Below, piece after piece: positions 2,524-17,565 of a DNA stretch of 45,108 nt. The DNA lies in UHGV virus genome UHGV-0324336; one strand, 5' to 3'. The notes under the pieces were generated by a model, which saw only the letters and a list, made by a program, of their open reading frames with translations, made no database searches and was not told the origin of the DNA. A program made the position numbers and the translations under genes. Source of the stretch: a virus. Position 1 is the first letter of the stretch. Each line of letters starts with the position of its first letter.

Positions 2524-3551
<1,028 letters not shown>

Positions 3552-3664
3552 GGATATTTATCAGGATTTATCGGCTTCAAATCCCCGGATATGTTAAATC
3601 TTACCTCACCAGTGATGGGCACTGGCGGGAGGAGGATGTCAATCTGATAAACACCGAGGCGACT

Positions 3665-3925
3665 ATGGATTACACAAATCTACCAAAACAAACTTTTGCT
3701 GATTTAATCGCACTCAGGCAAGCAGTCGTAGCTCTAATCAACTTGTTGCCGGAGAAGGAAAAGGAATTAGTTAAAGCGCTTCTTAACAGAACTGCCGCCG
3801 ATTTTTCATCATATCCACTGACAGATGACCTTGCGGACCTTCCTGAATTAATTGCAGCGTCCGCCATTAAGCTTACTGAAGAGATTTACCCTCCTCAAAA
3901 ATCTTCACAAAATTCCTGCGAGTAA
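3665..3925 (+). CDS. hypothetical 86-aa protein encoded antisense within the lysis cassette gap
   Basis: ORF track; GAGG 5 nt upstream of ATG; fills a 320-nt gap with no minus-strand ATG ORF; 3' end overlaps convergent 183-aa gene by 53 nt. Confidence 0.3.
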   Translation: MDYTNLPKQTFADLIALRQAVVALINLLPEKEKELVKALLNRTAADFSSYPLTDDLADLPELIAASAIKLTEEIYPPQKSSQNSCE

Positions 3926-4424: not shown

Positions 4425-4428
4425 TGAA

Positions 4429-4644
4429 TTACTCTCCCCGTGCAGCCTTACGCTTGTCTTCTCTGATTTTGAAGTACAGATTTGTCAGATAAGTCAGGAA
4501 GCCCAGAACCAGACTCCCCAGTACACCAATCGCAGCCCACTGTGACGGACTGACCTGATCAAGCCACTGTAAAAACCAGTAGCCAGCACTGCCTGCGGAG
4601 GTGCCGTAGGCAATGCCCGTTGAAATTTTGTCCATGGATTTCAT
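4429..4644 (-). CDS. class II pinholin, phage 21 S-like (dual-start MKSM)
   Basis: 71 aa; MKSMDK dual-start motif and two TM segments essentially as in S21 (recalled); directly upstream of SAR endolysin. Confidence 0.9.
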
Positions 4645-4935
4645 AGCCTCACCTCCGCAAATAACGGATGGCGTAGTTTTACACTGAGAAATGAAAGGGA
4701 TTTGAAAAGAAAAAACCGCAAAAGCGGGCGAAACGATATATACAGAAAGGAAAGCACTCTATCCAACAAACCACCCACAGTTAATCGGAATAAAAGCAGA
4801 GTGCTTATGAATGATCGCCTGCCCGAAGGTTAGTATTTCTGCACAGCAATTTTGCAAAAAAAGGCGATCATTCATAACTTAAACGTCTTTCAGTCACTCC
4901 GGGATTTCCCATCATCGCAGACTGAAAGACTCTAA

Positions 4936-5011
<76 letters not shown>

Positions 5012-5013
5012 AT

Positions 5014-5090
<77 letters not shown>

Positions 5091-5091
5091 A

Positions 5092-5168
5092 CTGGACCGC
5101 CACCGGGGACTCGAACCTCGCACACTCAACTTAAAGGGTTGACGCTCTTTCCTGATGAGCTAGTGGCG
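5092..5168 (-). tRNA. tRNA-like gene with atypical anticodon loop (CCUUUAA; Lys-UUU-like but C33); possible pseudo- or non-canonical tRNA
   Basis: Manual fold: acceptor CCGCCAC/GTGGCGG, D-arm GCTC…GAGC, T-loop TTCGAGT, CCA encoded, but position 33 is C and T-stem has an A·C mismatch. Confidence 0.5.
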
Positions 5169-5169
5169 G

Positions 5170-5245
5170 CTGGTGGCCCTTGCTGGATTTGAACCAGCGA
5201 CCTGGCGATTATGAGTCGCTCGCTCTCACCACTGAGCTAAAGGGC
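5170..5245 (-). tRNA. tRNA-Ile2/Met type (anticodon CAU), ileX/ileZ-like
   Basis: Manual fold: GGCCCTTTAGCTCAGTGGTGAGAGC…CTCATAA…GGTTCAAATCC…GGGCCACCA; closely resembles recalled E. coli ileX (lysidine tRNA-Ile2). Confidence 0.75.
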
Positions 5246-5351
5246 CGGGCGCAGGATAATAACGTTACGAAATCAATGTTGCAAGCATTCAAAAATCACC
5301 CTTATCTCCTCCACCAGCGCATTCACCATGTCTATCCGAGATAAGTGGCAC

Positions 5352-5373
5352 AAAAAACCCGCTTGTGGGCGGG
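5352..5373 (-). terminator. intrinsic terminator (tR'-like) downstream of the late promoter
   Basis: Minus strand reads CCCGC-ccacaa-GCGGG followed by TTTTTT; lies ~50-70 nt downstream of the predicted late promoter. Confidence 0.55.
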
Positions 5374-5428
5374 TTTTGTTTGCTTTTGCCATCACGTACA
5401 AAATCGGCAAAATATCAGATTTGCATGA

Positions 5429-5457
5429 AATATATGCCTTTCAATCTACTTTTGCAA
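5429..5457 (-). promoter_or_regulatory. candidate late promoter (pR'-like) with probable qut region
   Basis: Minus strand -35 TTGCAA (5452-5457), 17-nt spacer, -10 TATATT (5429-5434); immediately 3' of the Q-like gene and 5' of the terminator. Confidence 0.45.
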
Positions 5458-6130
5458 CACTTTGCTTTGAAAATGCCGCCTTTTGTTTTGAACGTGTTCT
5501 CATTACAAACAATAAAGCCTCACTATCAAGTCGGTGAAAAATGTGTTTCATTGCAACCCAGTGACGAGTAAATGTTTTGGACCAGTTTTTAGTTGTCACT
5601 CCCGCCAGTAATGCCAGCTCCTGGTATTCATAACCTTCCCCACCAAAAAGTTCTGCTTTTACTGCCTGCGCCGCCAGCCAGATTAATTTTTTCAGGCGTT
5701 CCTGCGTTTTCCCTGCAATTTTTCTGGTACCGGATTGAGTATTAAATTCATTCCACGCCCACTGTGTTATCGCGATCTGATATTCCCAACAAATAATCCC
5801 GCTGTAACACCACAACAACCAGGCTTTATGATGTTCTTCAAGAGACAGAACTGCCCGTCGCCATGATGATGTCGAAAACTCAACCTGACTTACCAGAGCA
5901 ATTGATGAGCCTTTCGCCAGTGATTGTTTTCCCGGTATCGGTGGACTATCCCGCGTTATCATTCTTCCAGTCACTTCATCGCGGTACCGGATTTTTTTAC
6001 GCCTGTAACGCCCTGTATCAAACATGGCATTCTCCTGCCAGGCTTCAAGCTGACCTTTTGTTGCCCCACTCAAATCAGCGGTAGCGATAATGAGCTGCTC
6101 ACGCACAAACTGTAAATACTGGTTATTCAT
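5441..6130 (-). CDS. putative late-gene antiterminator Q-family protein (229 aa)
   Basis: Position after rusA and before the late promoter/terminator and lysis genes; ATGA overlap with rusA; family not confirmed from sequence. Confidence 0.5.
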   Translation of the reverse strand: MNNQYLQFVREQLIIATADLSGATKGQLEAWQENAMFDTGRYRRKKIRYRDEVTGRMITRDSPPIPGKQSLAKGSSIALVSQVEFSTSSWRRAVLSLEEHHKAWLLWCYSGIICWEYQIAITQWAWNEFNTQSGTRKIAGKTQERLKKLIWLAAQAVKAELFGGEGYEYQELALLAGVTTKNWSKTFTRHWVAMKHIFHRLDSEALLFVMRTRSKQKAAFSKQSVAKVD

Positions 6131-6486
6131 GCGCGCTCCAGTTCTGTGATTTTTATCCCCAGCCGACCACCAGGAACAGGCAGTCCGCGCACAATATTGA
6201 TTTCATCAAACTGCTCGTCGTCTATGAGAAGTCCGGCATGCGTCAGCGCATCCAGTGGTGCCTTCAGGATATTGTCCAGGTCGCGGCGGCGCTTATCCGG
6301 TGGCTCTGCAATAATTTTTATTGCCAGCCTTCCGGACAGGTTTAATTTCAACCGCTGCTGGCGAACAATTAGTGCCACATCACGGCGATAACGCTCACCG
6401 ACTTTTGATACAAAATATGTGTTGCCACGACGTCGCCAGTAAGTATTCACCGTCGGCGGATAAGGCAAAACAAACTCTATACGCAT
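6127..6486 (-). CDS. rusA: RusA-family Holliday-junction resolvase
   Basis: 119 aa; PDxRRRDLDN…LDAL…GxxxDD motifs match RusA (120 aa, …RRRDLDNLQKAAFDALT… as recalled). Confidence 0.85.
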   Translation of the reverse strand: MRIEFVLPYPPTVNTYWRRRGNTYFVSKVGERYRRDVALIVRQQRLKLNLSGRLAIKIIAEPPDKRRRDLDNILKAPLDALTHAGLLIDDEQFDEINIVRGLPVPGGRLGIKITELERA

Positions 6487-6498
6487 CAGTAACCTCTT

Positions 6499-7620
6499 TT
6501 ACCCGAGCACGCCGGTTGCAAAGGCGTGATCAAGAAAACGAAAAATTAAATCAACCTGGGAACCATGCTTTTCTTCGAACGCCAGCGGATCCGCATGAAG
6601 TTCGTTGTGATGTTCCCGGCACAACGGTAGCGTGAAAATATCGTGGGCCTTTGTTCCCATCCCTCCCTGACCGTGACCAATCAGGTGATGGGGATCGTCG
6701 GCTGGCTGACCACAACACGCACACGGCTGTGTCTTCACCCAGCGCGTATATTTCTCATTTACCCAACGGCGACGTTTAGGTCGCCTCATGAAAGATTCCG
6801 GAGACTCCGGATCAACGGTGATGCATACCACCGTCTTTTCCTGTGGTGGGTTCTGTTGCTGGTGGGCATGAGGCAACGGCGCAAGATTTTTTGTGCGCTG
6901 CTTCAGTATGCTGGTGGTGGTCTGCTCTCCCGGTACGATGTCGCTTTCGCGGTACAAGGAGCGGATTTTTTCCGCACGTAACCCCAGAGAACGACGTAAT
7001 ACTGCCTCCGGAAGCGCGTCCGCCACCTGATTGCAGACCGCCCACCAGGATAATTCAGCCAGCGACAATTCCCGCTCCTGCGTGCCATTCATTGCATGGC
7101 GTATGACGTCAATCATCCATGCTGACAGGTTTTGATGAGCAAGTTGCCCGAGTGATTCGGATGTCTGGTCACGCAACTGGTTGTCGCAGTGCCAGCACAA
7201 CACCATCGCGCCGGTACCGTAACAATGTATGACGATTTCACTGTGATGATAGTCACCATGAGGCCACTGGCAGGATTTGACATGACGCAACAGCCAGTCA
7301 GACAGTGCCCCAGCGCCGCCAGCAGCACGAATCACCCGCTCATCGCTGAAAAATGGCAGTAATGATTTATCCTCCGCCAGCGGCTGGCGAACGGCAGGGA
7401 CGACTCCGGACGGCAAACCGCGCATGCTTTTCGGTTCAGGCTCCACCAGCACTCGAGGGTTATGAAATACTTGCATGGATTCACGGCCCGGCCTAAGGAC
7501 CACCAGCCCGAGTTCCGGTACCAGAACAGGTCGAAGTAATATCCGCACGTTACCTCCAGATCCGTTGCTGGTATGTGCGGGATGGGCGCGGTGGGCGTTC
7601 GGAATAAGGGAGCCTGACAT
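6499..7620 (-). CDS. HNH-motif protein, DUF968/YdfU-like (start uncertain; alternative ATG at 7476)
   Basis: C-terminal CACCG…DPHHL…GG…N…CREHHNELH is a typical HNH/ββα-Me arrangement; position matches ydfU in Qin. Confidence 0.5.
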   Translation of the reverse strand: MSGSLIPNAHRAHPAHTSNGSGGNVRILLRPVLVPELGLVVLRPGRESMQVFHNPRVLVEPEPKSMRGLPSGVVPAVRQPLAEDKSLLPFFSDERVIRAAGGAGALSDWLLRHVKSCQWPHGDYHHSEIVIHCYGTGAMVLCWHCDNQLRDQTSESLGQLAHQNLSAWMIDVIRHAMNGTQERELSLAELSWWAVCNQVADALPEAVLRRSLGLRAEKIRSLYRESDIVPGEQTTTSILKQRTKNLAPLPHAHQQQNPPQEKTVVCITVDPESPESFMRRPKRRRWVNEKYTRWVKTQPCACCGQPADDPHHLIGHGQGGMGTKAHDIFTLPLCREHHNELHADPLAFEEKHGSQVDLIFRFLDHAFATGVLG

Positions 7621-7828
7621 AGATTATCCAGTGACGATAATCGAGGCTGAGGGCTTTCTTAATCTCGTATCCGCGTCTGCGATAGTTATGAATTAGCCAT
7701 TCGGCCTGTTCTTCAGTACATGGGTCATGCTGGAACCAGTCAGATTTGAAAGTGCGGGAACGCCGCCCGTGCCTGCTGGCAAAGACGGCAGAATCATCAG
7801 AATTGTGTAATTTGGTATCGTGCGCCAT
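7550..7828 (-). CDS. hypothetical protein (92 aa from MAHDTK start), rem position
   Basis: ORF track 7550..7909; the upstream part of that ORF overlaps a strong terminator, so the ATG at 7828 is preferred. Confidence 0.3.
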   Translation of the reverse strand: MAHDTKLHNSDDSAVFASRHGRRSRTFKSDWFQHDPCTEEQAEWLIHNYRRRGYEIKKALSLDYRHWIIYVRLPYSERPPRPSRTYQQRIWR

Positions 7829-7898
7829 CGGTTGTCTCTGCTGGCGCAGCAGGTGCCAGTTGTTCAGGCTGGCGTGCGAATTGTAAACCAGAATGCCA

Positions 7899-7926
7899 GG
7901 AAAAAACAAAACCCGCCGAAGCGGGT
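7899..7926 (-). terminator. intrinsic terminator downstream of lipoprotein moron
   Basis: Minus strand ACCCGC-ttcg-GCGGGT followed by TTTGTTTTTT. Confidence 0.6.
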
Positions 7927-8124
7927 ATGCTAAAACAAACTGAAAGTAATATACCGGACTTGTAAAGGAACGATAGAATAATTATTGGATTAAACCCTGA
8001 CTCAATCCAGATTTCATAGGCAACAACTACGGACTAATCATCACAGTCATGTTTGATAGACTTAGTCCACATTGGGTGAGGGTTTACGGCGTTTTCACTA
8101 ATAATTTATCGTCCAAGCTATACA

Positions 8125-8517
8125 CTACTGCCCTGTTTTAACGAAGTTTTTAAAGGAAACAACTGCCTGATAGGGGTTTGGTTGACAGCCAAACATATTA
8201 TCGCAAAAAGGCTTGATGAAAATTCTTGAGGATCCATCTTCATTTGGCATTTTACTCACTTGATAAGCGAGGAATGGACTATTTGGAGAGGGATTATAAG
8301 TGGAAATTAGCGTGTCTGTCGCCGTTTGAATTTTCCATGAGGAATTATTAGCCAACCAGAATTGCGCTCGTTTCCAATAAAAGTCACATTGCTTTTCATC
8401 ATTACATGTTAGTGGCTTCATTGCTTCTGCTTTCAACGCTGGATCGACCTTTGCTGCACACCCTCCCAACATTACTGTTGCAATCATTACACCTGCGACT
8501 AAAACAAGTTTCTTCAT
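8125..8517 (-). CDS. secreted lipoprotein (moron), function unknown
   Basis: Signal peptide MKKLVLVAGVMIATVMLGGC with lipobox LGGC; several Cys in mature part; flanked by terminators. Confidence 0.7.
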   Translation of the reverse strand: MKKLVLVAGVMIATVMLGGCAAKVDPALKAEAMKPLTCNDEKQCDFYWKRAQFWLANNSSWKIQTATDTLISTYNPSPNSPFLAYQVSKMPNEDGSSRIFIKPFCDNMFGCQPNPYQAVVSFKNFVKTGQ

Positions 8518-8570
8518 CTCCCTGCCCCATCAATAAAAGTTCGGTTCTCTAATAACTAGAGTTAATCAAC

Positions 8571-8592
8571 GGAAAAAACGCCGAAGCGGGTT
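8571..8592 (-). terminator. weak intrinsic terminator 3' of hok
   Basis: Minus strand CCCGC-ttcg-GCG followed by TTTTTT; short stem. Confidence 0.35.
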
Positions 8593-8660
8593 AAGTGCGG
8601 GTGCGTTGAGGATGCCTGACACATCAGAGGTGGCGAGGGATTTCTCCCCCGCCAGGTCTC

Positions 8661-8816
8661 TTACTCCTCAGGTTCGTAAGCTGTGAAGACAGCGACCTCC
8701 GTCTGGCCGGTTCGGATTCGTACCTCGCAGAGGTCTTTCCTCGTTACCAGTGCCGTCACAATGACGGTTAAACAGATGACGATCAGGGCGATTAACATCG
8801 CCTTTTGCTGCTTCAT
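8661..8816 (-). CDS. hok: Hok/Gef-family type I toxin (51 aa)
   Basis: MKQQKAMLIALIVICLTVIVTALVTRKDLCEVRIRTGQTEVAVFTAYEPEE matches the Hok consensus (…CLTLL…LTRKSLCEIR…REVAAFMAYE); in-frame upstream extension in the ORF track may be mok-like. Confidence 0.8.
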   Translation of the reverse strand: MKQQKAMLIALIVICLTVIVTALVTRKDLCEVRIRTGQTEVAVFTAYEPEE

Positions 8817-9463
8817 AGCCTGCTTCTCCTTGCCTTTCGGCACGTAAGAGGCTAACCTAGATTTGCCGTTCATAGATTGAGCCTCAGATTAATGTTAAGC
8901 GTCTTGCAGGACGCGTAATGTTAACTGGGGCTTTTCTCTATCTGCCTTTGGTGTTCATGCCTGAGGCAGATAGCCTCAAGCACCCGCAGCAATTCTACTT
9001 AACTCACGTCACCTCGCCAATATAAAATCAATCAGAAAGGCGATCCATAAGAACAACAGCAAGGCAATAAATTGCCATTACAGCAGCAATAGCCAGCGCA
9101 CATTTGAGAACCAGCACCACAACCTCCTGTATTGGACGTACACCAGTCCTGATAAATATGAGGCTGTCTCGTCAGTGATTCAATACAACTATTGGGTATA
9201 GTTTCTGTGATTTTGTTCTGTAGAAATGGAACACAACAACCAGTCACCACCAGCACTTCTTTAAATACGCCAAGTCCGACGCAAGCTAACTTTCTAGTCC
9301 GCTTTGAGCGAGAAGAGGAAGTTCATAATTATTACCAGTACAGCGTATTACTAATTATTTTTACACTGAAAGCATTGAGGTGAGAAGGGGGTTTTTATGC
9401 TTGATTTAATTATAAAATTGCAGGAAAGTGACCTTGTATCAGCTGATGATGAGTGGGTAAAAA

Positions 9464-10843
9464 ATGTGGAAAGATAAGTATATTTGTCATAAATGCGTGA
9501 ACGATAAATATGTCATGCAGCATATAATAAAAACCGGAAATAATGTTCGGATTTGCTCTTACTGCAAAAGGAAGCGTAAAAACATCCACCTCAAATATAT
9601 TCTCAAGATGATGAATGAGGTTTTTGAGTACTACTATGATATGTATGAGGATATCTATGATTCCGGGCGCGGTGATAGCGCGCAGGATGTCATCTGCGGA
9701 GAACTGGGCGTCGAATGGGACGTAGCTGAAGATATTTATGAATTTCTTTGTGATGAATATAATCCGCATAACGATTATGACTACATCCGGTATAATGATG
9801 GGTTTGTTTATCGGCACATAAATCACTATAGCGGAGAGCTTGCGCATACCTGGAGTAAAGCCACTGACTCCCTTATGAAAGAAACACGATATTTTAACCG
9901 TGAAGTTAATGATTTCCTGGATTCACTTTTCAGTGATATCGATAAACTAAAAAACAGAGACAGTAATTCACCGATAAAAACTCTGACTGATGAGGTTCAT
10001 CTTTTTCGTGCAAGGGTCTTTGAGGACCAAGAGGAAGTAAAGCAAGCCTTGGAGCAGCCCGAGAAAAATTTTGGACCTCCCCCATCAACTTTGGCTCGGT
10101 CGGGCCGTATGAACGCACAGGGGATTTCAGTATTTTACGGTGCAACCTCAGTGAATTTGGCAATTGCTGAAGTAAGGCCGCCCGTCGGCAGTATTGTAGT
10201 AACGGCCTGTTTTGTACCGTTACGCGAGCTAAAAGTGCTGGACATTTCTGCCCTTGACTCGATTAGTTTCGGCTCAGGTAGTAAATTTGATCCTCAGACT
10301 CGCAAAACCAGTGAGCGCGCGATTTTTTTCAGTACGCTTTCCCGTAAGTTGACGCTTCCTACTTTTGGAAAAAGGCAGGACAGTGATTACCTCATCACCC
10401 AAGTGGTTGCCGATTACCTAGGTGACCGAAATAAATTTAAGCTTGATGGTGTCAGCTTTAAATCTACCCAGGTAGATGCCAACGGTGAGGATGCTGAGAT
10501 AGGATATAATGTCGTTCTGTTTAATAAGTCTTCCGGCGTCAGGCATGCCGCAGATAAATCTCGCCGATATAATGTTGAGATGTATGAACACATCGAAGAT
10601 GACCAGTATGCTTTTGTTCCGGAAATTCAGTTAATAGTTGAGGAACAAATAAAACCGAGACATATGGGTTCATTTTCATCCTCGCATGACAAAAATGATG
10701 CACTACTGTTGAAAACCAACAGTATGACTTATCATAAAATTACTGGTGTAAAATACCAAACAAGTGAGACGGAGATTCATCAGGGAGATAGTGTTCGAAA
10801 ACAAGAGCCACCTCAGAAATTCGATGACCTGATGGACTTCTGA
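9464..10843 (+). CDS. RES-domain protein (putative NAD+-targeting effector) with N-terminal CxxC…CxxC zinc-ribbon domain
   Basis: Candidate RES triad R215 (GRMN), E236 (LAIAEV), S331 (DGVSFKS) with intervening YG; N-terminal C8-x2-C11…C31-x2-C34; AT-rich codon usage. Confidence 0.65.
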   Translation: MWKDKYICHKCVNDKYVMQHIIKTGNNVRICSYCKRKRKNIHLKYILKMMNEVFEYYYDMYEDIYDSGRGDSAQDVICGELGVEWDVAEDIYEFLCDEYNPHNDYDYIRYNDGFVYRHINHYSGELAHTWSKATDSLMKETRYFNREVNDFLDSLFSDIDKLKNRDSNSPIKTLTDEVHLFRARVFEDQEEVKQALEQPEKNFGPPPSTLARSGRMNAQGISVFYGATSVNLAIAEVRPPVGSIVVTACFVPLRELKVLDISALDSISFGSGSKFDPQTRKTSERAIFFSTLSRKLTLPTFGKRQDSDYLITQVVADYLGDRNKFKLDGVSFKSTQVDANGEDAEIGYNVVLFNKSSGVRHAADKSRRYNVEMYEHIEDDQYAFVPEIQLIVEEQIKPRHMGSFSSSHDKNDALLLKTNSMTYHKITGVKYQTSETEIHQGDSVRKQEPPQKFDDLMDF

Positions 10844-11257
10844 TCATCCGTTATATCAGGGTAAACTATTATTAAAGATGATGTGAGGGCAGTTAAGGAA
10901 GGAATTCACCCTGTATCGCCTGTATCGCGTTACTGGCGTCCCTTGATACCAAGCGGGCAGATTGGTGAACAGGCACGTCTGTTTGAGCGAGGAGCTGGCT
11001 TTGTAGAATGCCTCAAGGGATAAAAACACCTTATTTACGCAACTTACTGCGAAAGGACCATGGCTTTGCTGGCTTCGGATACGTTGCTGAGTTCCTCAGC
11101 CACCTTAAGTAACCGGCGTTGTGTTTGATGATAGGATTGTTAGTATGGAATATGAGAATTACCTCTTGTATTGTATAACACTTCGGCCCCATATCAATAC
11201 CAGTAACTCTTAATCTTTCAAAGCCATGTGTCAGATCAAGTCACGACTAATGCAAAT

Positions 11258-11288
11258 AATAGACAGATATCATTCTAATCTGTCTATT
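11258..11288 (-). terminator. perfect 11-bp inverted repeat hairpin between convergent genes
   Basis: AATAGACAGAT-(9 nt)-ATCTGTCTATT, 17 nt 3' of the HExxH gene stop; AT-rich, no clean U-tract. Confidence 0.35.
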
Positions 11289-11304
11289 ATTATGTCAAAA
11301 TTAT

Positions 11305-12228
11305 TTAGTGTAATTCCGAAAGGAGCCTAGTAACAAACTCTTTATATGTTGTAGCTTTATAATCAAGCTTACGGTTTTCCTGTCTCATCACCGCGATGAG
11401 AAGACAAGCTGTAAAACACCAGAAGGGCGATGAATCTGAAAGGTTGTACCCCCCTATCATTGTTTGAATCCTTACTGCTATAGATGGATACTCTTCACCA
11501 CCCCATTTATCGATATCTGATGTTAAAGCGTGTATAGTAAAGGCGGCAAGTGTTATCCCCATTGCTCGTTTTTGCATGACCTCTTCATAGGTATGCCCAG
11601 CTTTTTTAGCATAGACTCCGACGCCCTTAGTTATATATTCACGAGCCCAAGAGTCACAGGCTAACTCTTCTTCATCCTTCTCTTGGGGATTTTCATGTTT
11701 TTTTTCTTCGGCTCGTGCTTGAACATGTTTATACTCATGAAGTATAGAAAAAGACAATGCTAATGCTACTAGATCAAAAACAGCCTGTTCTTGAATATTA
11801 TTCAAACTATCTCGCGCATCTGTTGGAAAAGGAATATCTTGAGGCCATGTAATATCAGCCGTATTCGCAACGCTTAGCAAAGACTTTGAAATATACAAAT
11901 GCTGTTTATAATTTAGTTCAAATTGGCCACGTTCTTCATCAGATTCTAAAGCCGACTCTAACGTCACACCTAGTAAGCATGCTTTTACTAGGGCTGGAGC
12001 ATATGTCTCAATCGTAAACCATGTACTAAACCCAAATAACCAAAAGAAATCGATAGTTTTAGAGTCAAACTCGATGCGCCTACTAGTTGCATTCATTGTT
12101 GATCCTAGGGCATCCTCTGCAAGTTCGACCGTGTGTTTATAGCTCTTCCAGGTCTGACAAAGTTCATCAGCATTCTCAGGAACAGCCCCTCTTAGGAGGT
12201 TTAAAACTATAGTATCTAGTGATGGCAT
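11305..12228 (-). CDS. putative zinc metallopeptidase (HExxH), possibly Lit-like phage-exclusion protease
   Basis: Single HEYKH motif at residues 164-168 of 307 aa; size and motif position close to e14 Lit (297 aa, HExxH ~160-164, recalled); AT-rich. Confidence 0.5.
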   Translation of the reverse strand: MPSLDTIVLNLLRGAVPENADELCQTWKSYKHTVELAEDALGSTMNATSRRIEFDSKTIDFFWLFGFSTWFTIETYAPALVKACLLGVTLESALESDEERGQFELNYKQHLYISKSLLSVANTADITWPQDIPFPTDARDSLNNIQEQAVFDLVALALSFSILHEYKHVQARAEEKKHENPQEKDEEELACDSWAREYITKGVGVYAKKAGHTYEEVMQKRAMGITLAAFTIHALTSDIDKWGGEEYPSIAVRIQTMIGGYNLSDSSPFWCFTACLLIAVMRQENRKLDYKATTYKEFVTRLLSELH

Positions 12229-12605
12229 AAAACTGACTCCTTATTCTACTTGTTATAAAACAACGATGTTATGTTAATCACCTATTTTAGATGTTCATAG
12301 AATTCTTAAGACATCAATCATAGCAAAATAAAAAGCATATAGTGCTATATTAAACCACTAGCAAAAATGAATATAAAATGTGGTTTTGTCCGTTCCAGCC
12401 ACAAGCGATCAAGGGAGAGGAATGAGGTTTTCAATGAGCGTATAGTAAGCATTTTCATTACAACTTAGAAGCATCGAGTAAATATCATTACTAATCCAAT
12501 ATGACTATGATGAACTAAGCTTCAGATTTATAATTATCATCATAACTAGAAGCTAGGTTGCTGAAAAGGAAGTCAATAGCATCCCTTAACTTAAAACCTA
12601 TGATT

Positions 12606-13139
12606 CTATATTCCTTTTTTATAATCTCTAGACAAAAAATCAAACAGGACTTTACGTTTGTAAAGTAACGTAACCCTTACATTTTCAAGATCTGACTCCT
12701 TAATATCAGGTTTGCCATCATAATAATTTCTCCGCATTGCTTTTAAATAATCACCGTAGTCTCTTAAAGCAACTGATGTGTCAGTTAAACCTAAAAGCAA
12801 AAGCTTCGACTCTGCAACTGTCAAGCTTTTAAAATTGTCAAATAAATCTAATTTTGTTTTATTTAACTCCTCTTGCCTTTCTCTGGTAAGATCCAATCCC
12901 TTTTGTTCCTTATTTCTAACCCATTCAATTATCAAAGCCCAATAGCGTAAGGATATATGTGTCATATCCTCAATTTGAGTGCTTACAGATTCTAATGAAT
13001 CATAATAGCGACGACTTTTATCTTTATCAAATTCATGTTTGTGATTCATTTTTGAAATAATAAATGTACCTGTCAGCGTTATTATACCACCAAATCCAAT
13101 CTTCACAGCCGTATCAACAACTTCCACCCAGGTTGTCAT
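12606..13139 (-). CDS. hypothetical membrane-anchored protein (177 aa)
   Basis: N-terminal TM helix (VKIGFGGIITLTGTFIIS) then charged helical domain; AT-rich island gene with own upstream gap. Confidence 0.55.
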   Translation of the reverse strand: MTTWVEVVDTAVKIGFGGIITLTGTFIISKMNHKHEFDKDKSRRYYDSLESVSTQIEDMTHISLRYWALIIEWVRNKEQKGLDLTRERQEELNKTKLDLFDNFKSLTVAESKLLLLGLTDTSVALRDYGDYLKAMRRNYYDGKPDIKESDLENVRVTLLYKRKVLFDFLSRDYKKGI

Positions 13140-13424
13140 CCAAAACTACCTCTTGATGTTATTAAACACTCTACTAAACCAATGCATTGGAAACTAATTA
13201 TTTCTTACGCAAATACATATTCTAATATTATGTCTTCTACTAGAACCAAAATCAATCATTAGTGAAAGTGAAATAAAAGCGACATGGGCATAATGCTGCT
13301 GAGTATTGATCAGCAATTAGTTATGGATGAACGTCCTCTCTTGGCACAAAGCGGACAACCACGCTAGCTCTACCCTGTGCCACAAAATGTCAATTTGCAT
13401 CTGAACTAATGCACTTTAATCTCG

Positions 13425-13847
13425 TCACTTCAATAAATACCGAACATCCCCCTGATAAAACGACAATATGCGCTGCATAACTTCACTCTTCCGGCACTCG
13501 CGACAGATTATGTTCTGACGCCTGTCGTAGCGACGTATTTCTCCGTCAGGTAATGACCAGATAAGGTCCGGATCAACCGCAGATGGTTTCTTCAGCTTTG
13601 CCCTTGAGAGCTTTTTACGGGCATTTTGCCAGTCCTTACGCGCCTGTTCAGACGGGAATAACCCGTAACCAGAGTTGTATACATCGCCGCTGGCAACCAG
13701 CTCTCTTGCGAGAACGCTCATCAGATATCTTGTCGCACCTGTTTTGACTTCCAGTTGCCGTAACGTCTCACGCCCACTCTGGCGTACGAGTTCAACAACC
13801 TGCCCTTTAATTTTTTCTCGCTCTTCTTGTGTAAAAACTTTTGCCAC
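13425..13847 (-). CDS. hypothetical protein (140 aa) downstream of replication initiator
   Basis: ORF track; possible winged-helix segment; occupies the position of a helicase loader but has no Walker motifs. Confidence 0.45.
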   Translation of the reverse strand: MAKVFTQEEREKIKGQVVELVRQSGRETLRQLEVKTGATRYLMSVLARELVASGDVYNSGYGLFPSEQARKDWQNARKKLSRAKLKKPSAVDPDLIWSLPDGEIRRYDRRQNIICRECRKSEVMQRILSFYQGDVRYLLK

Positions 13848-13887
13848 AAGTCCTCCTGAAAATTACCTCATGACCAGAAATCAACAC

Positions 13888-14964
13888 TTACCCCCTGAAG
13901 CCCGGTGGAATTTCGGTATCCGGTTCAGAAATATGATTCACACAACGCTGGTTGTTCGTGCCGCTTACCGGGAGCAGCCAGGGGTTTTCAAAATTCCGGT
14001 CCGGTCCAAAAAACGTCGTTGCTCGCTGAACAAATTCCGTTCCCGTTTTCCCGGTAGCCGCAAGGTATCTTGCGTAACGCCTCACGCCATCCAGCATGGC
14101 CTCTGGTGACACCCCCTCGCGTAATCTGGCCTTCCAAGCACTGAAAGCGGATTTCTTCGGGTTTGCCCCAGCACGCAACGGGTATTCCCGCCAGACCTGT
14201 TCGAACACATCCGGATAATCCACTCGTCCCACAGGCTGCCCGGTGTTTTCCGGGACTACCCGATCGGCTTCCCGCTGAATGGCGGAATCGGCTTCAGGCT
14301 GCTGCAGTTGGTGTGATTGCTCCGGCCTTGCGGTCATCACCTGCTGCACAGCGCCCGAATCGGCTTTCAGCGCATACGCTGAATCGGCTTCCGGTGTCGT
14401 GCCTGCTGGCTGACCAAGATTGACGGTCTGAACATCCCCTGCCTGGTTCGTGGCGTTTTTTACGCCATGGACCATAGTGTTTTGATCTTCTTGATCTGTA
14501 TCTTTATCTGTATCTTTATCTGTCGTGACTCGTCGTGACATGTGCGTGACATTTCGTGACGCACCGTGACAATCGCCATTTTGTTCCCGCTTTCTTTCCC
14601 TCTCTCGCTGCGCCCTCTTGCGCTCTGCAGGAGATTTTGCGGTTTGCGAAATATTGCCGTTGTCCTCTTTAAGAACCTGGCGTTTTTCCCATCCAGTGAT
14701 TAAATCACCATCAAGTACCCGCCCCTGCATCGTCTGCAAAATTGAATCAATTACCTCTTCTGTCACGTCGAGCGCACTTGCCAAATCTTCTGTCGTGACA
14801 TCAATGTGACCTCGCGTGACATTTCGTGACGCGCTCACCAGGAGGTGGATATACACTGCCATCACTGTTGCAATTGGCTGCCCTGACACCCTAGCAATTG
14901 TTCGCCACTTAGGGTCATTTGGCATGTCATGCCATAATCTGAGCCAAGCGTTAGCCATACTCAC
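13888..14964 (-). CDS. replication initiator / replisome organiser (lambda O-like role)
   Basis: Position after cro/YdaT module; N-terminal HTH-like region; two iteron clusters inside the ORF as in lambdoid ori-within-O. Confidence 0.65.
   Translation of the reverse strand: MSMANAWLRLWHDMPNDPKWRTIARVSGQPIATVMAVYIHLLVSASRNVTRGHIDVTTEDLASALDVTEEVIDSILQTMQGRVLDGDLITGWEKRQVLKEDNGNISQTAKSPAERKRAQRERERKREQNGDCHGASRNVTHMSRRVTTDKDTDKDTDQEDQNTMVHGVKNATNQAGDVQTVNLGQPAGTTPEADSAYALKADSGAVQQVMTARPEQSHQLQQPEADSAIQREADRVVPENTGQPVGRVDYPDVFEQVWREYPLRAGANPKKSAFSAWKARLREGVSPEAMLDGVRRYARYLAATGKTGTEFVQRATTFFGPDRNFENPWLLPVSGTNNQRCVNHISEPDTEIPPGFRG
14524..14570. repeat. iteron cluster 1 (5 x CGTGAC at 10-11 bp spacing), candidate ori
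   Basis: CGTGAC at 14524, 14534, 14545, 14555, 14565; preceded by TATCTTTATCTG tandem repeat (14491-14523). Confidence 0.6.
14794..14830. repeat. iteron cluster 2 (4 x (C/T)GTGAC at ~10 bp spacing)
   Basis: CGTGAC at 14794, TGTGAC 14805, CGTGAC 14815, CGTGAC 14825. Confidence 0.5.
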
Positions 14965-15029
14965 CTCTTCTGATACCGAATCTTTTTACTCACGAGTTGC
15001 CGGAAGCGATTCGATATGGCTATTGTCAG

Positions 15030-15455
15030 TCAATGTACTGCCACAGCATTTCCTGCCGGGCCACCACGGTTCATCTGATTGAAACCGGCGATTGCCACTG
15101 CGACAAAATCATCAGCGTCTCTCACCAATCGCTCCCGCGTCTCCACCAGCTCCCGAAAATAAGCTGAACTGTGGCTGCGCATTCTGGCCACCAGCAAAGG
15201 TGGCATTGCCTTTTCGATCGCTGGTAACAACGCCTGAATTTTTTCAACTGCATCAGGGGTGTCTTTCTCTACCCAGCGGAAAATTTTCTGGGTATTGCGA
15301 GCCAGGGCTTCCGGATGGCTGTCGTCATACAGTTCAGGAAACGTCATACCCAACTCAAAATAAGCCTGGGTTATTCCAGCTGCTGGAACTTTTTCGCCAT
15401 CAGGACGCGCCCAGGCATTCATCGCCATGCGGATGTGTTCATGCTTGATTTTCAT
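15030..15455 (-). CDS. YdaT-family protein (Rac YdaT-like; proposed CII-like regulator/toxin)
   Basis: 141 aa, starts MKIKHEHIRMAMNAWA…; ATGA-coupled to the cro-like gene as ydaS-ydaT are in Rac (recalled). Confidence 0.55.
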   Translation of the reverse strand: MKIKHEHIRMAMNAWARPDGEKVPAAGITQAYFELGMTFPELYDDSHPEALARNTQKIFRWVEKDTPDAVEKIQALLPAIEKAMPPLLVARMRSHSSAYFRELVETRERLVRDADDFVAVAIAGFNQMNRGGPAGNAVAVH

Positions 15456-15682
15456 GAATCCCCCCCTTGGTTAGAAGGCGGATTATGATCAGAACCGGGA
15501 ATGACAACCGTCGGTATGTGTAACTCATATTTGAGCGCCCCGGCAGTGACTGCCTGAATTAGCAACGCCCATTTCCACGGAACCTCTTCCCCCCACATGC
15601 TGACTGTGGTTTTTGACGTTCCTAGAGCTGCGGCTGTTTTAACAACTCCGCCAAAATAGCCTAATACTTCTGATTTTTTCAT
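15452..15682 (-). CDS. Cro/YdaS-like HTH regulator (76 aa)
   Basis: MKKSEVLGYFGGVVKTAAALGTSKTTVSMW… HTH; GGAG 6 nt upstream of ATG at 15682; divergent from cI. Confidence 0.7.
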   Translation of the reverse strand: MKKSEVLGYFGGVVKTAAALGTSKTTVSMWGEEVPWKWALLIQAVTAGALKYELHIPTVVIPGSDHNPPSNQGGDS

Positions 15683-15710
15683 AAGTCGCTCCATAAAACT
15701 GAACGCCAAA

Positions 15711-15773
15711 ATTTTAATAATCAAAACCAAAGAAAGTCAAGAAACAAAACCATCTGTGTTTTAAAATCAAAAC
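15711..15773. promoter_or_regulatory. OR-like operator region between cro and cI
   Basis: ATTTTAATAATCAAAAC (15711-15727) and GTTTTAAAATCAAAAC (15758-15773, abutting cI ATG): inverted half-sites GTTTT/AAAAC. Confidence 0.45.
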
Positions 15774-16400
15774 ATGAGCAAGCAAACAATATCTGAACGC
15801 ATAACCCAACGTATGCATGCGCTAAACCTGAAAGGCAAAGACCTTGTCAATGCCACTGGCGCATCAAAAGGCTCCGTAAGTCAATGGATGAACGGTGGAG
15901 GAGCGCCGTCCTCGCGTTACATAAGTTCACTGGCAAAGATATTGAAAGTAAACGAAAATTGGCTTCTTAATGGAGGAGAGTTAAATACAGGTGATTCGCT
16001 TGATCTATCTTTACCGCCGATAAAAACGGTTCCGCTACTATCAGCAAGCTGGAGTGATTATATGAAAAATTCCTCAATAACCTCTTGTGTGCAGCTTGTC
16101 GGAGAAATCCCGGCCAATACCTTTGCAGTTGTTCTAGAGAGTGACAGTATGTCAACATCTGGTGGGGGAGTTTCCATCCCAAATGGTTCAACAGTTTTTG
16201 TTGATCCCGATCGAACCGTACAACCAGGAAATATTGTCCTTGCCTTACCCAAAGGGACCACAACACCTGTCATTCGTAAACTGGAGATAGAAGGGCCGGA
16301 TATTCTTTTAGTCCCCACGAATCCTCGCTACCCTTCAATTATGCTGGATGATCTATCTTGCATATTGGGCGTATGCTTTAAAATTCAACAAGATATTTAA
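15774..16400 (+). CDS. CI-like prophage repressor (HTH_XRE + S24 LexA-type autopeptidase)
   Basis: N-terminal HTH (ATGASKGSVSQWMNG); C-terminal S24 signature with Ser in ESDSMS and Lys in VIRKL. Confidence 0.85.
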   Translation: MSKQTISERITQRMHALNLKGKDLVNATGASKGSVSQWMNGGGAPSSRYISSLAKILKVNENWLLNGGELNTGDSLDLSLPPIKTVPLLSASWSDYMKNSSITSCVQLVGEIPANTFAVVLESDSMSTSGGGVSIPNGSTVFVDPDRTVQPGNIVLALPKGTTTPVIRKLEIEGPDILLVPTNPRYPSIMLDDLSCILGVCFKIQQDI

Positions 16401-16466
16401 CCAACCTCATCTATTTGATTAACTGTATGCCATCGTGGTGATGGCTTAACAGCTGCCTGCTTAAAA

Positions 16467-16512
16467 TGTTTTGATAAAAAACATTGACCTGAAAAGTTCA
16501 TTTTTCTAAGCT
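16467..16512 (+). promoter_or_regulatory. OL/pL-like operator-promoter for the ydfA-dicB early operon
   Basis: Palindrome ATGTTTTgataaAAAACAT (16467-16485) resembling the OR sites, overlapping -35 TTGACC (16484-16489), 17-nt spacer, -10 TAAGCT (16507-16512). Confidence 0.4.
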
Positions 16513-16691
16513 TCATTCATTCCCTCACCCCACCCCACAGAATGCAGGGCAATACTTCGAGTTACCAGGCAGTGGTCAGGGGTTAAGTAGCCAGCCCGAG
16601 GCGTAAGAACATGACGGCAGGGTTCAACTTTAATAACTATGCAGCAGGTTTTTGTTCCGCTACCCCGGCGTTAAGGGGAAATGAGGTCAAC

Positions 16692-16847
16692 ATGGATACT
16701 ATCGATCTTGGCAACAACGAATCTCTGGTGTACGGCGTGTTTCCCAACCAGGACGGCACATTCACCGCGATGACGTATACCAAAAGCAAAACGTTTAAAA
16801 CCGAAAATGGTGCCCGTCGCTGGCTGGAAAGAAACTCAGGTGAGTGA
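16692..16847 (+). CDS. ydfA: YdfA-like small protein (51 aa)
   Basis: MDTIDLGNNESLVYGVFPNQDGTFTAMTYTK…; GAGG 5 nt upstream; first gene of dicB-type operon by synteny. Confidence 0.6.
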   Translation: MDTIDLGNNESLVYGVFPNQDGTFTAMTYTKSKTFKTENGARRWLERNSGE

Positions 16848-16848
16848 T

Positions 16849-16977
16849 ATGGATTTCGACACAATCATGAAAAAGGCTTACGAAGAATACTTCGAAGGCC
16901 TTGCCGAAGGCGAAGAAGCTCTCAGCTTCAGTGAGTTTAAACAGGCGCTTTCCAGCTCGGCAAAATCTAACGGCTGA
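16849..16977 (+). CDS. ydfB: YdfB-like small protein (42 aa)
   Basis: Translated by hand (below ORF-track cutoff): MDFDTIMKKAYEEYFEGLAEGEEALSFSEFKQALSSSAKSNG; size and position as ydfB. Confidence 0.5.
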   Translation: MDFDTIMKKAYEEYFEGLAEGEEALSFSEFKQALSSSAKSNG

Positions 16978-17006
16978 TAAGCGAAGCAGCACCGCGAGGA
17001 ATCAGT

Positions 17007-17225
17007 ATGCAGAAACGAGAACCCGTCATCATCGCGCCAGACTATACCGATGATGAACTTTATGAGTGGATGCGCCAGAAAATTAATGCAGCGCAGGATC
17101 TGAAATGGGCCAATGAAGCCAGGGCTAAGCAGGCTGAAAATCTGTCCGCTCTGGAGCAGGATATCACCAGGCTGGAAAAAGCAGCGGCATTAAGCATTGC
17201 CAGAATGATTACATACCCGCGTTAA
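17007..17225 (+). CDS. ydfC: YdfC-like protein (72 aa)
   Basis: ORF track; AGGA 6 nt upstream; 72 aa as K-12 YdfC; synteny ydfA-ydfB-ydfC-dicF-dicB. Confidence 0.55.
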   Translation: MQKREPVIIAPDYTDDELYEWMRQKINAAQDLKWANEARAKQAENLSALEQDITRLEKAAALSIARMITYPR

Positions 17226-17565
17226 TAGCTAACCAACGAAGCTAAGGTTGGTAATTAAGGAGTTCTCCACGGGTGAGGTGGAGTGCGTGCGCCGGACACG
17301 GGTGAGCATCCGGCACTGACAGTTTACTGAAAGGATATTTCCCTGAAAAGTCAGACCATAACGCGAAAGCGCACGGCGAGGTAGCTGGTTCATAGATAGC
17401 CTGTCGTTAAATTATCGTCGACCGTGCGCTTCCGGTTGTGGCACTCCGCGAAATGGCGCGGCGGTAAGTATGGCGGGGTTATTCCTTCACCGTTGAGGAC
17501 ACCGGGTTGTCAGGTTGACCATACGCTTAAGTGACAACCCCGCTGCAACGCCCTCTGTTATCAAT

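Follow-up and report, generated by a model that had tools for sequence, protein, structure and literature searches.

An AT-rich island in an Escherichia coli lambda-like prophage comprises two swappable gene cassettes

The AT-rich island described here consists of two swappable gene cassettes carried by a lambda-like prophage of Escherichia coli. It occupies a slot in the lambdoid backbone, with the replication module (DUF977) on one side and hokD on the other. We consider it likely that two accessory cassettes, both acquired horizontally, are arrayed in the island, with cargo that is most likely anti-phage, and that the island was assembled by recombination at palindromic sites. The features are collected in Table 1.

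We set the limits of the island at positions 9316-13329 of the window, the whole 45,108-nucleotide stretch analyzed, by comparison with L003, a prophage with other cargo. The initial annotation had reported a sharp drop in base composition against a backbone of ~50% GC and had placed the island at 9270-13420; both the drop and the island are real, and the coordinates were slightly generous. Windowed GC is 0.384 within these limits, compared with 0.484 in the left flank (5316-9315) and 0.487 in the right flank (13330-17329), that is, 38.4% versus about 48.5%. Among all 4014-bp windows of the 45-kb sequence, the lowest GC is 0.385, at 9301, and the median is 0.486. The three open reading frames are present with the lengths and strands originally given, and the intergenic gaps (461 and 377 bp) have the expected size of 375-460 bp. 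Their description as AT-rich holds for the second gap (GC 0.313) but not for the first, which at 0.414 is not AT-richer than the genes. In the left flank, hokD (8661-8816) is supported by Pfam HOK_GEF (E 3e-23) and by its RefSeq name, and the sok RNA by an Rfam match of 111.7 bits.

The island is bordered by two palindromes, both of which point into it. The left site has 9-bp arms around a 6-nt centre, GAGCGA, and the centre of the right site is GTGCCA. Homology with L003 breaks at 9315/9316, within the left site, and restarts at 13330, at the right site. In the window, the boundary pattern occurs at both island borders and nowhere else, with a chance expectation of 0. The border sites are the best two model matches, and the third-best is a degenerate A-type site inside the island. 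In a locus that carries RES with a different 476-aa cargo (L222), homology stops at 10990, inside this internal site, which also aligns with stronger sites at the ends of lit cassettes from Enterobacter (E 6e-6) and Citrobacter (E 5e-5). The internal site marks where the RES module meets the lit-177 module. It is weak, and no matching T-type end was detected for the RES module. The inner half of the T-type site accompanies the 177/lit cassette in Klebsiella, Enterobacter, and Citrobacter elements, and in many related prophages the DUF977 gene adjoins a T-type site. The conserved palindromic boundary sites, which define the cassettes, had been missed in the initial annotation.

Table 1. Features of the island and its backbone flanks, in window coordinates
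Feature	Coordinates	Strand	Basis
Left backbone flank: hokD toxin gene and hok/sok regulatory RNA region	8661..8985	-	Pfam, Rfam, RefSeq
A-type palindrome of 27 nt at the left border, GTCCGCTTTGAGCGAGAAGAGGAAGTT	9297..9323	+	30.4 bits, E 1e-8
26-codon upstream ORF MLDLIIKLQESDLVSADDEWVKNVER	9397..9477	+	Read from the sequence; strong Shine-Dalgarno sequence
459-aa stand-alone RES-domain protein	9464..10843	+	Pfam RES, RefSeq, homologs
Degenerate internal A-type site GTCTGTTTGAGCGAGGAGCTGGCTTTG	10978..11004	+	10982-11002, 9.7 bits, E 0.043
Perfect 14-bp hairpin 3' of lit	11255..11291	-	Inverted repeat I7
307-aa Lit-family zinc metalloprotease (Peptidase U49)	11305..12228	-	Pfam PF10463, PADLOC, NCBIfam
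177-aa protein, uncharacterised conserved family	12606..13139	-	Homologs, AF2
Right boundary site, T-type palindrome GTCCGCTTTGTGCCAAGAGAGGACGTT	13330..13356	-	30.6 bits, E 9e-9
Right backbone flank: DUF977 gene, last of the replication module	13425..13847	-	Pfam DUF977, E 7e-30

Module 1 (9324-10977) encodes a stand-alone RES-domain protein with an N-terminal zinc-ribbon region. The predicted RES domain was recovered by Pfam at about residues 207-361 (53 bits, cut-off 23.2, E=5e-14), and RefSeq labels the protein 'RES family NAD+ phosphorylase'. The domain is preceded by a four-Cys zinc ribbon/HEPN-RES-NTD1-like region and followed by a beta-rich C-terminal region. PF18870 reaches 21.1 bits on this protein, under its cut-off of 27.4; the 759 homologs of equal length include many with precomputed PF18870 and PF08808 matches. 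In the alignment, C8, C11, C31, and C34 are nearly invariant, and R182, R184, R215, E236, R238, Y309, S334, and Q336 are invariant. No PADLOC model matched the RES protein, and it had zero sequence matches among solved structures. The 26-codon upstream ORF runs across the RES start codon in a different frame, and in the protein called in Klebsiella variicola (P0070, 481 aa) the homologous peptide is fused in frame to RES. RES moves alone, as its own cassette: the module is 97% identical at an unrelated prophage site, and RES occurs with second modules of three kinds, each time 167 bp past an A-type site.

Module 2 (11005-13329) holds lit, which has a likely terminator hairpin of its own, and the 177-aa gene. 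The HExxH motif noted earlier in the 307-aa protein corresponds to H164, E165, and H168 and lies in a Peptidase_U49/Lit match (PF10463, 30.5 bits, cut-off 23.9; PADLOC Lit, E 1.3e-18). The protein scored 184.7 bits against NCBIfam NF007238, under the equivalog cut-off of 274, and shares 20% identity with K-12 Lit across 270 aligned residues; its substrate and trigger may therefore differ from those of K-12 Lit. The HExxH motif, E187/E188, D192, and K220-R221-A222 are invariant, K-12 Lit included. The 307-aa protein belongs to a separate, widely spread subfamily with 50-60% identity across alpha-, beta-, and gamma-proteobacteria. The perfect hairpin had been taken as an element between the convergent genes; it is there, with arms at 11255-11268 and 11278-11291, but directly past the lit stop codon, as part of the lit cassette rather than shared. 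It folds with a minimum free energy of -16.7 kcal/mol (z -3.4), and Klebsiella, Enterobacter, and Citrobacter cassettes have a hairpin at the same place with another stem sequence (z -5.1 to -7.7). It is likely a transcription terminator or RNA stabiliser of lit.

At the N terminus of the 177-aa protein, a hydrophobic helix leads into a stretch rich in K, H, and R. The AF2 model of the protein is all-helical (pLDDT 89.9). We read it as a cytoplasmic four-helix bundle anchored in the membrane by a putative N-terminal transmembrane helix. No family was found for it in Pfam, NCBIfam, or PHROG, PADLOC gave only a weak partial match (E 0.004), and a PDB fold search with the model returned no significant match; with Foldseek, significant structural neighbours were absent for both models searched. 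The family comprises 68 homologs, almost all of 175-178 aa, with 18 invariant residues.

The initial annotation had regarded the three genes as independent stand-alone modules. Our comparison yields two instead, since the 177-aa gene and lit travel as a single cassette. The pair recurs, with 79-92% protein identity, in four mobile-element contexts: a slot in a lambdoid prophage, an island of the P4 type, the end of a P2-like prophage, and a prophage of Citrobacter.

The slot itself is variable, as had been proposed. Of 5426 complete E. coli genomes, 4 contain the complete island, whereas about 1900 have its flanks. In related prophages, the slot is taken by retron Ec67, Kiwa with relBE, an ATP-dependent nuclease, or a RelA/SpoT-domain gene; for at least one of these cargos, the nuclease (L006), no boundary sites could be detected. 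The earlier parallel with Qin also stands, as relB-relE adjoin hokD within the DUF977/hokD slot of a Qin-like prophage. Elsewhere, site-bounded cassettes carry PD-T7-1 (E 7e-157), a ThsB-like TIR protein (E 9e-128), and NsnA-like nucleases, and also non-defence cargo (MFS transporters, LysR, SDR, and acetyltransferase).

Our survey of the boundary motif gave 100 distinct instances. In all 36 non-redundant convergent pairs an A-type site faces a T-type site, with no A-A and no T-T pair, and of the 13 divergent pairs, in which the sites lie back to back, 9 have a spacing of 15-18 nt. In the site stems, 89.6% of cells are paired, and a 9-bp hairpin is possible. We found no covariation in the stems, a signal that is absent because the sequence hardly varies. 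Loop bases are conserved as strongly as stem bases, suggesting sequence-specific recognition.

Co-inheritance raises the question of whether the 177-aa protein and Lit form one two-component system, in which the former might tether or inhibit the protease or act as its membrane sensor. In all four contexts the two genes keep their order and strand and lie ~380-400 bp apart, and one pair of boundary sites encloses both genes. However, a gap of ~400 bp is not operon-like, and the four enteric copies, whose DNA is 83.5% identical with the spacer counted in, may simply descend from one recent ancestor. Moreover, no Lit homolog lies close to any of 65 more distant 177-aa family loci, in as many other genomes, and the genes around them all differ; in Psychrobacter the gene sits in a core context between genes that read as AmpD-like and MurJ-like. 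Conversely, lit-like genes of Pseudomonas and Acetobacter are followed by a T5orf172 gene and lack the 177-aa gene. We therefore regard a joint system as unlikely. Still less probable is that the cargo are addiction or stabilisation toxins that hold a possibly defective prophage in the chromosome. The slot does adjoin hokD/sok, Qin-like prophages hold relBE there, and in strain PF9285 the cro and integrase genes of the host prophage are frameshifted. Yet no antitoxin gene lies beside lit or RES, and none of Xre type beside RES, as had been noted before for antitoxins in general; the RES protein is three times the length of TA toxins and has a conserved N-terminal zinc ribbon as in conflict systems; K-12 Lit is an established phage-exclusion protein; and sister cassettes hold validated defence genes.

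It is possible, if somewhat doubtful, that the palindromes are transcription or RNA insulators (weak terminators, processing sites, or operators) and that cargo is swapped by homologous recombination in the flanks. Prophages that differ in cargo have kilobases of flank in common at 99.6-99.8% identity, more than enough for RecA or Red recombination; the sites are able to form the hairpin described above, and no dedicated recombinase is known for them. Insulation leaves unexplained, however, the conserved inner half-site on all unrelated cargos, the pairing of A-type with T-type ends in every cassette, the retention of just the inner halves by one and the same cassette in the P2-like, P4-like, and Citrobacter contexts, and the joining of the RES module to three partners exactly inside a site. 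The site hairpin also lacks a U-tract, and the equal conservation of loop and stem points to sequence-specific recognition.

Several known systems bear comparison. Lit of the e14 prophage in E. coli K-12, a Peptidase U49 member, cuts EF-Tu when activated by the Gol peptide of the T4 capsid. It shares with the 307-aa protein the Pfam family, HExxH, the invariant E-E...D-S-x-A and K-R-A motifs, a similar length (297 versus 307 aa), and its setting, in which a single gene on a prophage is preceded by a long AT-rich region. It differs in sequence, with the identity and equivalog score given above, and in subfamily, and the 307-aa family is linked to the 177-aa gene (enterobacteria) or to a T5orf172 gene (elsewhere). 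The 459-aa protein resembles RES toxins of TA systems, whose NAD+ chemistry is summarised in PMC9503650, in its above-threshold Pfam RES match, its invariant R/E/S-type residues, and its NAD+ phosphorylase annotation in RefSeq. In contrast to the 459-aa protein with its N-terminal zinc ribbon/HEPN-RES-NTD1-like region and C-terminal extension, these toxins are about 150-190 aa long, and instead of an adjacent Xre antitoxin only the 26-codon ORF is found here. The relBE genes of Qin share the slot beside hokD and a related backbone, but form a classical two-gene TA operon, whereas the island genes have no antitoxin partners.

Anti-phage genes that are diverse and quickly exchanged in a fixed backbone slot have been described in temperate phages (2022, PMC9122126), where exchange by cos ends plus homologous recombination was suggested. 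As in those hotspots, the 177+lit cassette also turns up at the end of a P2-like prophage and inside a P4-like island; unlike them, the present slot lies in a lambdoid backbone between the replication module and hokD, and its cassettes have palindromic sites. In phage lambda, the b-region genes ea31 and ea59 are bracketed by a convergent pair, a weak T-type match at 24329-24354 (11 bits, E 0.017) and an A-type site at 27317-27348 (23 bits, E 2.6e-6). ea59 matches PtuA of Septu (E 5e-184) and PDC-M01A, and ea31 matches PDC-M01B, making a Septu-like pair that differs from the island in cargo and in lying next to att instead of at the replication/nin boundary. Integron cassettes (attC), Acinetobacter pdif modules, and engineered RMCE resemble the island in their short cargo, site-like ends, and arrays, and the latter two also in having two different inverted sites per unit with an arm, 6-nt centre, arm layout. 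Unlike in integrons, the sites lie at both ends rather than one, and integron integrase and attI are absent. By inspection, the boundary motif does not resemble the XerC/XerD dif consensus, and we do not claim membership of the integron, pdif, or RMCE classes.

Taken as a whole, we hypothesize that the palindromes take part in cassette exchange: each cassette would carry an A-type end and a T-type end, inverted relative to each other, crossover would occur at the palindrome centre, and the island would have been built and swapped between phages by recombination at these 27-nt sites. A Lit-family protease and a RES enzyme with intact conserved residues make a defence or exclusion reading reasonable. 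When a phage late protein appears, the Lit homolog would respond by cutting a translation factor, and triggering of the N-terminal region would lead the RES enzyme to consume NAD+. The 177-aa protein would be an autonomous unit, its co-inheritance with lit in enterobacteria being incidental. Judging by characterised relatives, the cargo would most likely protect the lysogen from other phages by abortive infection.

Between positions 6500 and 16000, the window is 100% identical to a lambdoid prophage of E. coli strain PF9285. The early-right operon lies on the minus strand and reads cro, a ydaT-like gene, a replication gene, DUF977, the island, hokD/sok, a lipoprotein gene, and DUF968, followed by RusA and Q as read off the annotation of the identical PF9285 prophage. 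An AT-rich accessory island at this place had been proposed in the initial annotation, and the finding proved real and largely well read. Computed windowed GC content falls to 0.384 in the island, compared with 0.484 and 0.487 in its 4-kb flanks, making it the lowest 4-kb stretch of the window. The three predicted ORFs are all where they had been placed, the gaps expected to span 375–460 bp measure 461 and 377 bp, and the perfect hairpin has arms of 14 bp.

The claim that the island is accessory also held: the complete island occurs in 4 of 5426 complete E. coli genomes, and the flanks occur in about 1900. A prophage with near-identical flanks (L003; 99.6–99.8% identity) carries a different cargo of 986 bp in the same position. 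Presence and absence between near-identical backbones, together with the deviating composition, mark the island as a moron, or prophage hotspot cargo. Alternative occupants of the DUF977–hokD slot include an 810-bp ORF, a retron Ec67 reverse transcriptase, an ATP-dependent nuclease, a RelA/SpoT-domain protein, and relBE with Kiwa and QueH, the last of these bearing out the earlier comparison with Qin; many further genes occupy the slot in related prophages. Prophage hotspots are a major reservoir of bacterial immunity, and, to our knowledge, the precision with which their cargo is exchanged is largely without explanation. Each component of the island is of a known kind (Lit-family protease, RES enzyme, prophage hotspot cargo); their combination is new. 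In the backbone, the cro-like gene and the integrase are annotated in RefSeq as frameshifted pseudogenes, so the prophage may be defective; the island genes are intact. An unannotated cysteine-rich 74-codon ORF with a GTG start, which may be spurious, lies in the conserved backbone between hok/sok and the left boundary site.

Coordinates of the features in the window and in the comparison loci
Feature	Sequence	Position	Strand
Unannotated 74-codon ORF	Window	9032-9256	-
A-type palindrome, left island end	Window	9297-9323	
AT-rich island	Window	9316-13329	
26-codon ORF	Window	9397-9477	+
RES gene (459 aa)	Window	9464-10843	+
Degenerate internal A-type site	Window	10982-11002	
Segment shared with the Enterobacter lit cassette	Window	11005-11180	
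psRNA2 candidate	Window	11156-11331	
Hairpin 3' of lit	Window	11255-11291	
lit homolog (307 aa)	Window	11305-12228	-
177-aa gene	Window	12606-13139	-
T-type palindrome, right island end	Window	13330-13356	
cro-like pseudogene	Window	~15440-15683	
cro-like pseudogene	PF9285 prophage (L001)	18440-18683	
Integrase pseudogene	PF9285 prophage (L001)	23980-25030	
T-type match	Phage lambda (L216, NC_001416)	24329-24354	+
misc_recomb feature	Phage lambda (L216, NC_001416)	24389	
A-type site	Phage lambda (L216, NC_001416)	27317-27348	-
T-type/A-type pair, one site	Qin-like prophage (L005)	3200-3231	+
T-type/A-type pair, other site	Qin-like prophage (L005)	4187-4219	-
Weak boundary-site match	K-12 e14 (L020)	3596-3622	-
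476-aa gene	L222	~4630-6060	-
Lit-like and T5orf172/MUG113 genes	P. aeruginosa (L091)	4001-5446	
Lit-like and T5orf172/MUG113 genes	Acetobacter (L093-L095)	4001-5438	
Distant relatives of the 177-aa gene	Psychrobacter (L025, L029, L036, L038, L041, L044, L045, L047-L049)	~3300-6250	

The three genes are as the initial annotation described them, but their independence did not stand, since the island is, as judged by comparison of loci, made of two modules and not three. The RES gene with 167 bp of upstream DNA recurs at 97% identity at an unrelated locus that adjoins the host pao genes, beside tail-fibre gene remnants of another prophage. In viral contigs, the RES module is joined to three different second modules: lit with the 177-aa gene, a pair of genes encoding 101 and 229 aa, and a 476-aa gene. 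The 177-aa gene and lit keep the same order, about 380–400 bp apart, in four contexts: the lambdoid slot of the window, a Klebsiella P4-like island (AlpA, DUF927), an Enterobacter P2-like prophage after gpD/Ogr, and a Citrobacter prophage. The two are not obligate partners: no Lit homolog occurs at any of 65 loci with more distant members of the 177-aa family, and the neighbors at these 65 loci all differ, Psychrobacter excepted. At L222, the 476-aa protein stands in place of lit and the 177-aa gene as partner of a 93%-identical RES gene, and it has no similarity to the other collected cassette cargos.

The 459-aa protein matches the Pfam RES family PF08808 over residues 207–361 (53 bits; cut-off, 23.2), and its N-terminal region falls just under the cut-off for PF18870, HEPN/RES-NTD1 (21.1 versus 27.4 bits). 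Among 759 homologs of equal length, many are annotated with both families, and many full-length homologs at 30–50% identity have a precomputed PF18870 assignment. A four-cysteine ribbon is nearly invariant among the RES homologs, and Arg-215, Glu-236, Ser-334, Arg-182, Arg-184, Tyr-309, and Gln-336 are invariant in 26 of them. From motif context, the first three would be equivalent to catalytic residues of solved toxins. Sequence and fold searches of the PDB with the protein returned no RES structure, Foldseek with the model gave nothing meaningful (best E = 0.28), and PADLOC v2.0 had no match. As the initial annotation had remarked, no antitoxin-like partner is visible: neither ORFs nor annotation revealed an Xre/HTH gene next to the RES gene in the window, in the PF9285 prophage, or in L002, so a RES–Xre pair is not present there. 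The neighbors of 30 phage-borne homologs showed no conservation over the whole family. RES domains phosphorolyse or hydrolyse NAD+ (PMC9503650). The N-terminal zinc-ribbon region may keep the RES domain inactive until a trigger arrives, whereupon the domain would consume NAD+ and arrest the cell. Upstream, a strong Shine-Dalgarno sequence precedes an ORF of 26 codons that runs 14 nt into the RES gene in another frame, and the RES protein of Klebsiella variicola (481 aa) includes a homologous peptide as an in-frame fusion. The ORF could act as a leader or in coupling, or the start site may be ambiguous; the ORF may set the level of RES translation.

The 307-aa protein scores above the gathering threshold of Pfam PF10463 (30.5 bits; cut-off, 23.9; E = 3.7e-7) and matches the Lit model of PADLOC v2.0 (E = 1.3e-18), the sole clear PADLOC match among the three proteins. 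It shares 20% identity with K-12 Lit and stays below the equivalog cut-off of NCBIfam NF007238, "phage exclusion protein Lit" (184.7 versus 274 bits). By these profile comparisons, it is a member of the Lit/Peptidase U49 family, yet no equivalog of K-12 Lit, and it sits in a large, tightly conserved 307-aa subfamily spread over proteobacteria. The HExxH residues His-164, Glu-165, and His-168 are invariant across 19 sequences including K-12 Lit (His-160, Glu-161, and His-164), as are the E-E...D-S-x-A and K-R-A motifs. A sequence search of solved structures gave no match. K-12 Lit cuts EF-Tu at Gly59-Ile60 after activation by a phage capsid peptide. By analogy, the homolog may be a latent zinc protease that senses a phage late product and cleaves an essential host translation component, aborting the infection; because identity is low, its target and trigger may differ from those of K-12 Lit.

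All four enteric cassettes, folded one by one, keep the hairpin 3' of lit with differing stem sequences; the hairpin therefore belongs to the lit cassette and is most likely the lit terminator. The Rfam candidate psRNA2 scored 24.8 bits, below its gathering score of 65, and was put down to chance; sok in the flank was the only other Rfam match. A promoter scan returned 20 consensus-like sites where 14.2 ± 3.8 were expected and was thus uninformative, and the candidate immediately 5' of lit overlaps the lit ribosome-binding site. In Pseudomonas aeruginosa and Acetobacter, a 307-aa Lit-like gene is followed after 10–18 bp by a 167-aa T5orf172/MUG113-domain gene, in what looks like a conserved two-gene operon; the 177-aa gene is absent there, and the T5orf172/MUG113-domain gene is absent from the window.

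No family in Pfam, NCBIfam, or PHROGs accounts for the 177-aa protein, which has 68 homologs of almost fixed length with 18 invariant residues. Its confident model (pLDDT 89.9) is a four-helix bundle into which a single long N-terminal helix packs; this helix opens with hydrophobic residues and continues with basic ones. Foldseek against the PDB found generic four-helix bundles only (best E = 0.16), and PADLOC gave a weak partial match to "2TM effector" (E = 0.004, 59 residues). The model is consistent with a membrane-anchored cytoplasmic helical bundle that would act on its own. The idea that every copy of the gene precedes some variable effector was dropped, as neighbor clustering gave no conserved partner and the Psychrobacter context is core genome. 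In ten Psychrobacter genomes, distant family members (34–40% identity) have a conserved chromosomal context, flanked by an AmpD-like amidase gene and a murJ-like gene as read from the sequence, which hints at an envelope-related role rather than a purely phage-borne one.

The unexpected part of our analysis is a palindromic boundary code that defines cassettes and reaches phage lambda. An inverted repeat covers both island ends, and its core is a 27-nt palindrome that, within the window, is unique to the two borders. The palindrome also brackets the alternative cargos of L003, L004, and L007; L006, with the ATP-dependent nuclease in its slot, has no detectable sites. A motif scan of viral contigs returned at least 120 stretches, and 100 distinct instances were collected among the matches listed. 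These fall into two discrete classes differing at two loop positions, each with 9-bp arms: A-type, GTCCGCTTTG-AGCGA-GAAGCGGAAGTT, with the 6-nt center GAGCGA, and T-type, GTCCGCTTTG-TGCCA-GAAGCGGACGTT, with the center GTGCCA. Loop bases are conserved to the same degree as arm bases in the 100 listed instances. Among the matches listed, all 36 non-redundant convergent pairs join an A with a T (A-A, 0; T-T, 0), and back-to-back sites of adjacent cassettes lie 15–18 nt apart in 9 of 13 divergent pairs. A covariation test of the boundary hairpin found 89.6% of cells paired with no excess over shuffles; the sequence varies too little for the stem to give such a signal.

Among the matches listed, about half of the contigs with the motif lack the DUF977/hokD backbone, so the motif is not slot-specific. 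The cargo of 44 cassettes among these matches includes PD-T7-1, a ThsB-like TIR protein, NsnA-like nucleases, retron Ec67, and RelA/SpoT, as well as transporters, regulators, and dehydrogenases. In the b region of phage lambda, ea31 (HNH) and ea59 (ATPase) lie between a T-type match that is weak (11 bits, E = 0.017) and a clear A-type site (23 bits, E = 2.6e-6). Ea59 is recognized by PtuA of Septu (E = 5e-184) and by PDC-M01A, and Ea31 by the partner model PDC-M01B. Close to the weak T-type match, the lambda record carries a misc_recomb feature. In a Qin-like prophage, ydfV-flxA lies between a T-type/A-type pair adjoining relBE-hokD, whose orientation relative to the backbone is opposite to that in the window's island. 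K-12 e14 has a weak match (9.9 bits, E = 0.035) 7 nt past the lit stop codon in the convergent orientation expected of a cassette end; no upstream partner site was detected. We found no description of the A/T code in the searchable literature, which is no proof of novelty, and nothing relevant on the motif sequence, hokD hotspots, or ea31/ea59 as Septu.

A sequence model built from the 100 listed instances and run over the whole window scored the island ends at 30.4 and 30.6 bits; its third-best match was a degenerate internal A-type site (E = 0.043). A T-type end of the RES module had been suspected by eye near 10928–10952, but the model did not detect one there. Homology with L003 stops at 9315 and restarts at 13330, and homology with L222 stops at 10990, midway through the internal site. 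The lit cassette of Enterobacter and Citrobacter ends in a clear site that aligns with the internal one, and of the T-type site, just the inner half accompanied the 177/lit cassette into the P2-like, P4-like, and Citrobacter contexts. Four independent comparisons thus put the junction near the site center, the outer arms belonging with the backbone and the inner ones with the cargo. Beyond the internal site, the window and the Enterobacter lit cassette have in common a segment of about 150 nt that the Klebsiella and Citrobacter cassettes lack. In L218/L002, the first part of this segment, up to window position 11078, directly adjoins the outer half of a T-type site; the segment may be a mini-cassette or a remnant.

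How these junctions arose can be read in two ways. Site-specific cassette exchange at the palindromes is a tentative reading, to which we give somewhat less than an even chance; its chief competitor has homologous recombination take place in the flanks and gives the palindromes some other role. Junctions near the site centers and the strict pairing of A with T speak for the former. No recombinase for the sites was identified, and this, together with the lack of likeness to dif, the lack of covariation, and the occupied slot without sites in L006, leaves site-specific exchange only a hypothesis.

Known systems offer partial parallels. Engineered recombinase-mediated cassette exchange has, like the island, sites of arm, 6-nt center, and arm in two inverted types, and the palindrome layout and inverted heterotypic arrangement recall the pdif modules of Acinetobacter. 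By inspection, however, the 100-instance consensus is unlike the XerC-6 nt-XerD consensus of E. coli dif. An integron cassette has a single attC at its 3' end and relies on IntI/attI, whereas the island has inverted sites at both ends, and the annotation of the prophage lists no integron integrase. A likeness to Xer dif, lambda Int core sites, Hin/Gin sites, or REP elements was ruled out on sequence. In its fullest form, site-specific exchange would make the palindromes the core sites of an undescribed natural system, a biological analogue of recombinase-mediated cassette exchange. Defense genes and further accessory genes would then pass from one lambdoid phage to another, with at least two hotspots (the b region and the replication/nin boundary) trading cargo and an occasional transfer to P2-like and P4-like elements, and the Septu-like ea31/ea59 pair of lambda would be one such cassette; we consider this possible, although we lean toward doubting it.

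As candidates for testing, the island adds a divergent Lit subfamily, a RES enzyme that stands alone, and a conserved membrane protein. It also yields a sequence rule, an inverted A-type and T-type palindrome with junctions at the palindrome center, that delimits cassettes in many lambdoid phages and probably extends to phage lambda itself. If the sites truly recombine, they would explain the modular spread of defense genes, make anything between an A and a T site a handle for finding new ones, and suggest a natural cassette-exchange tool.
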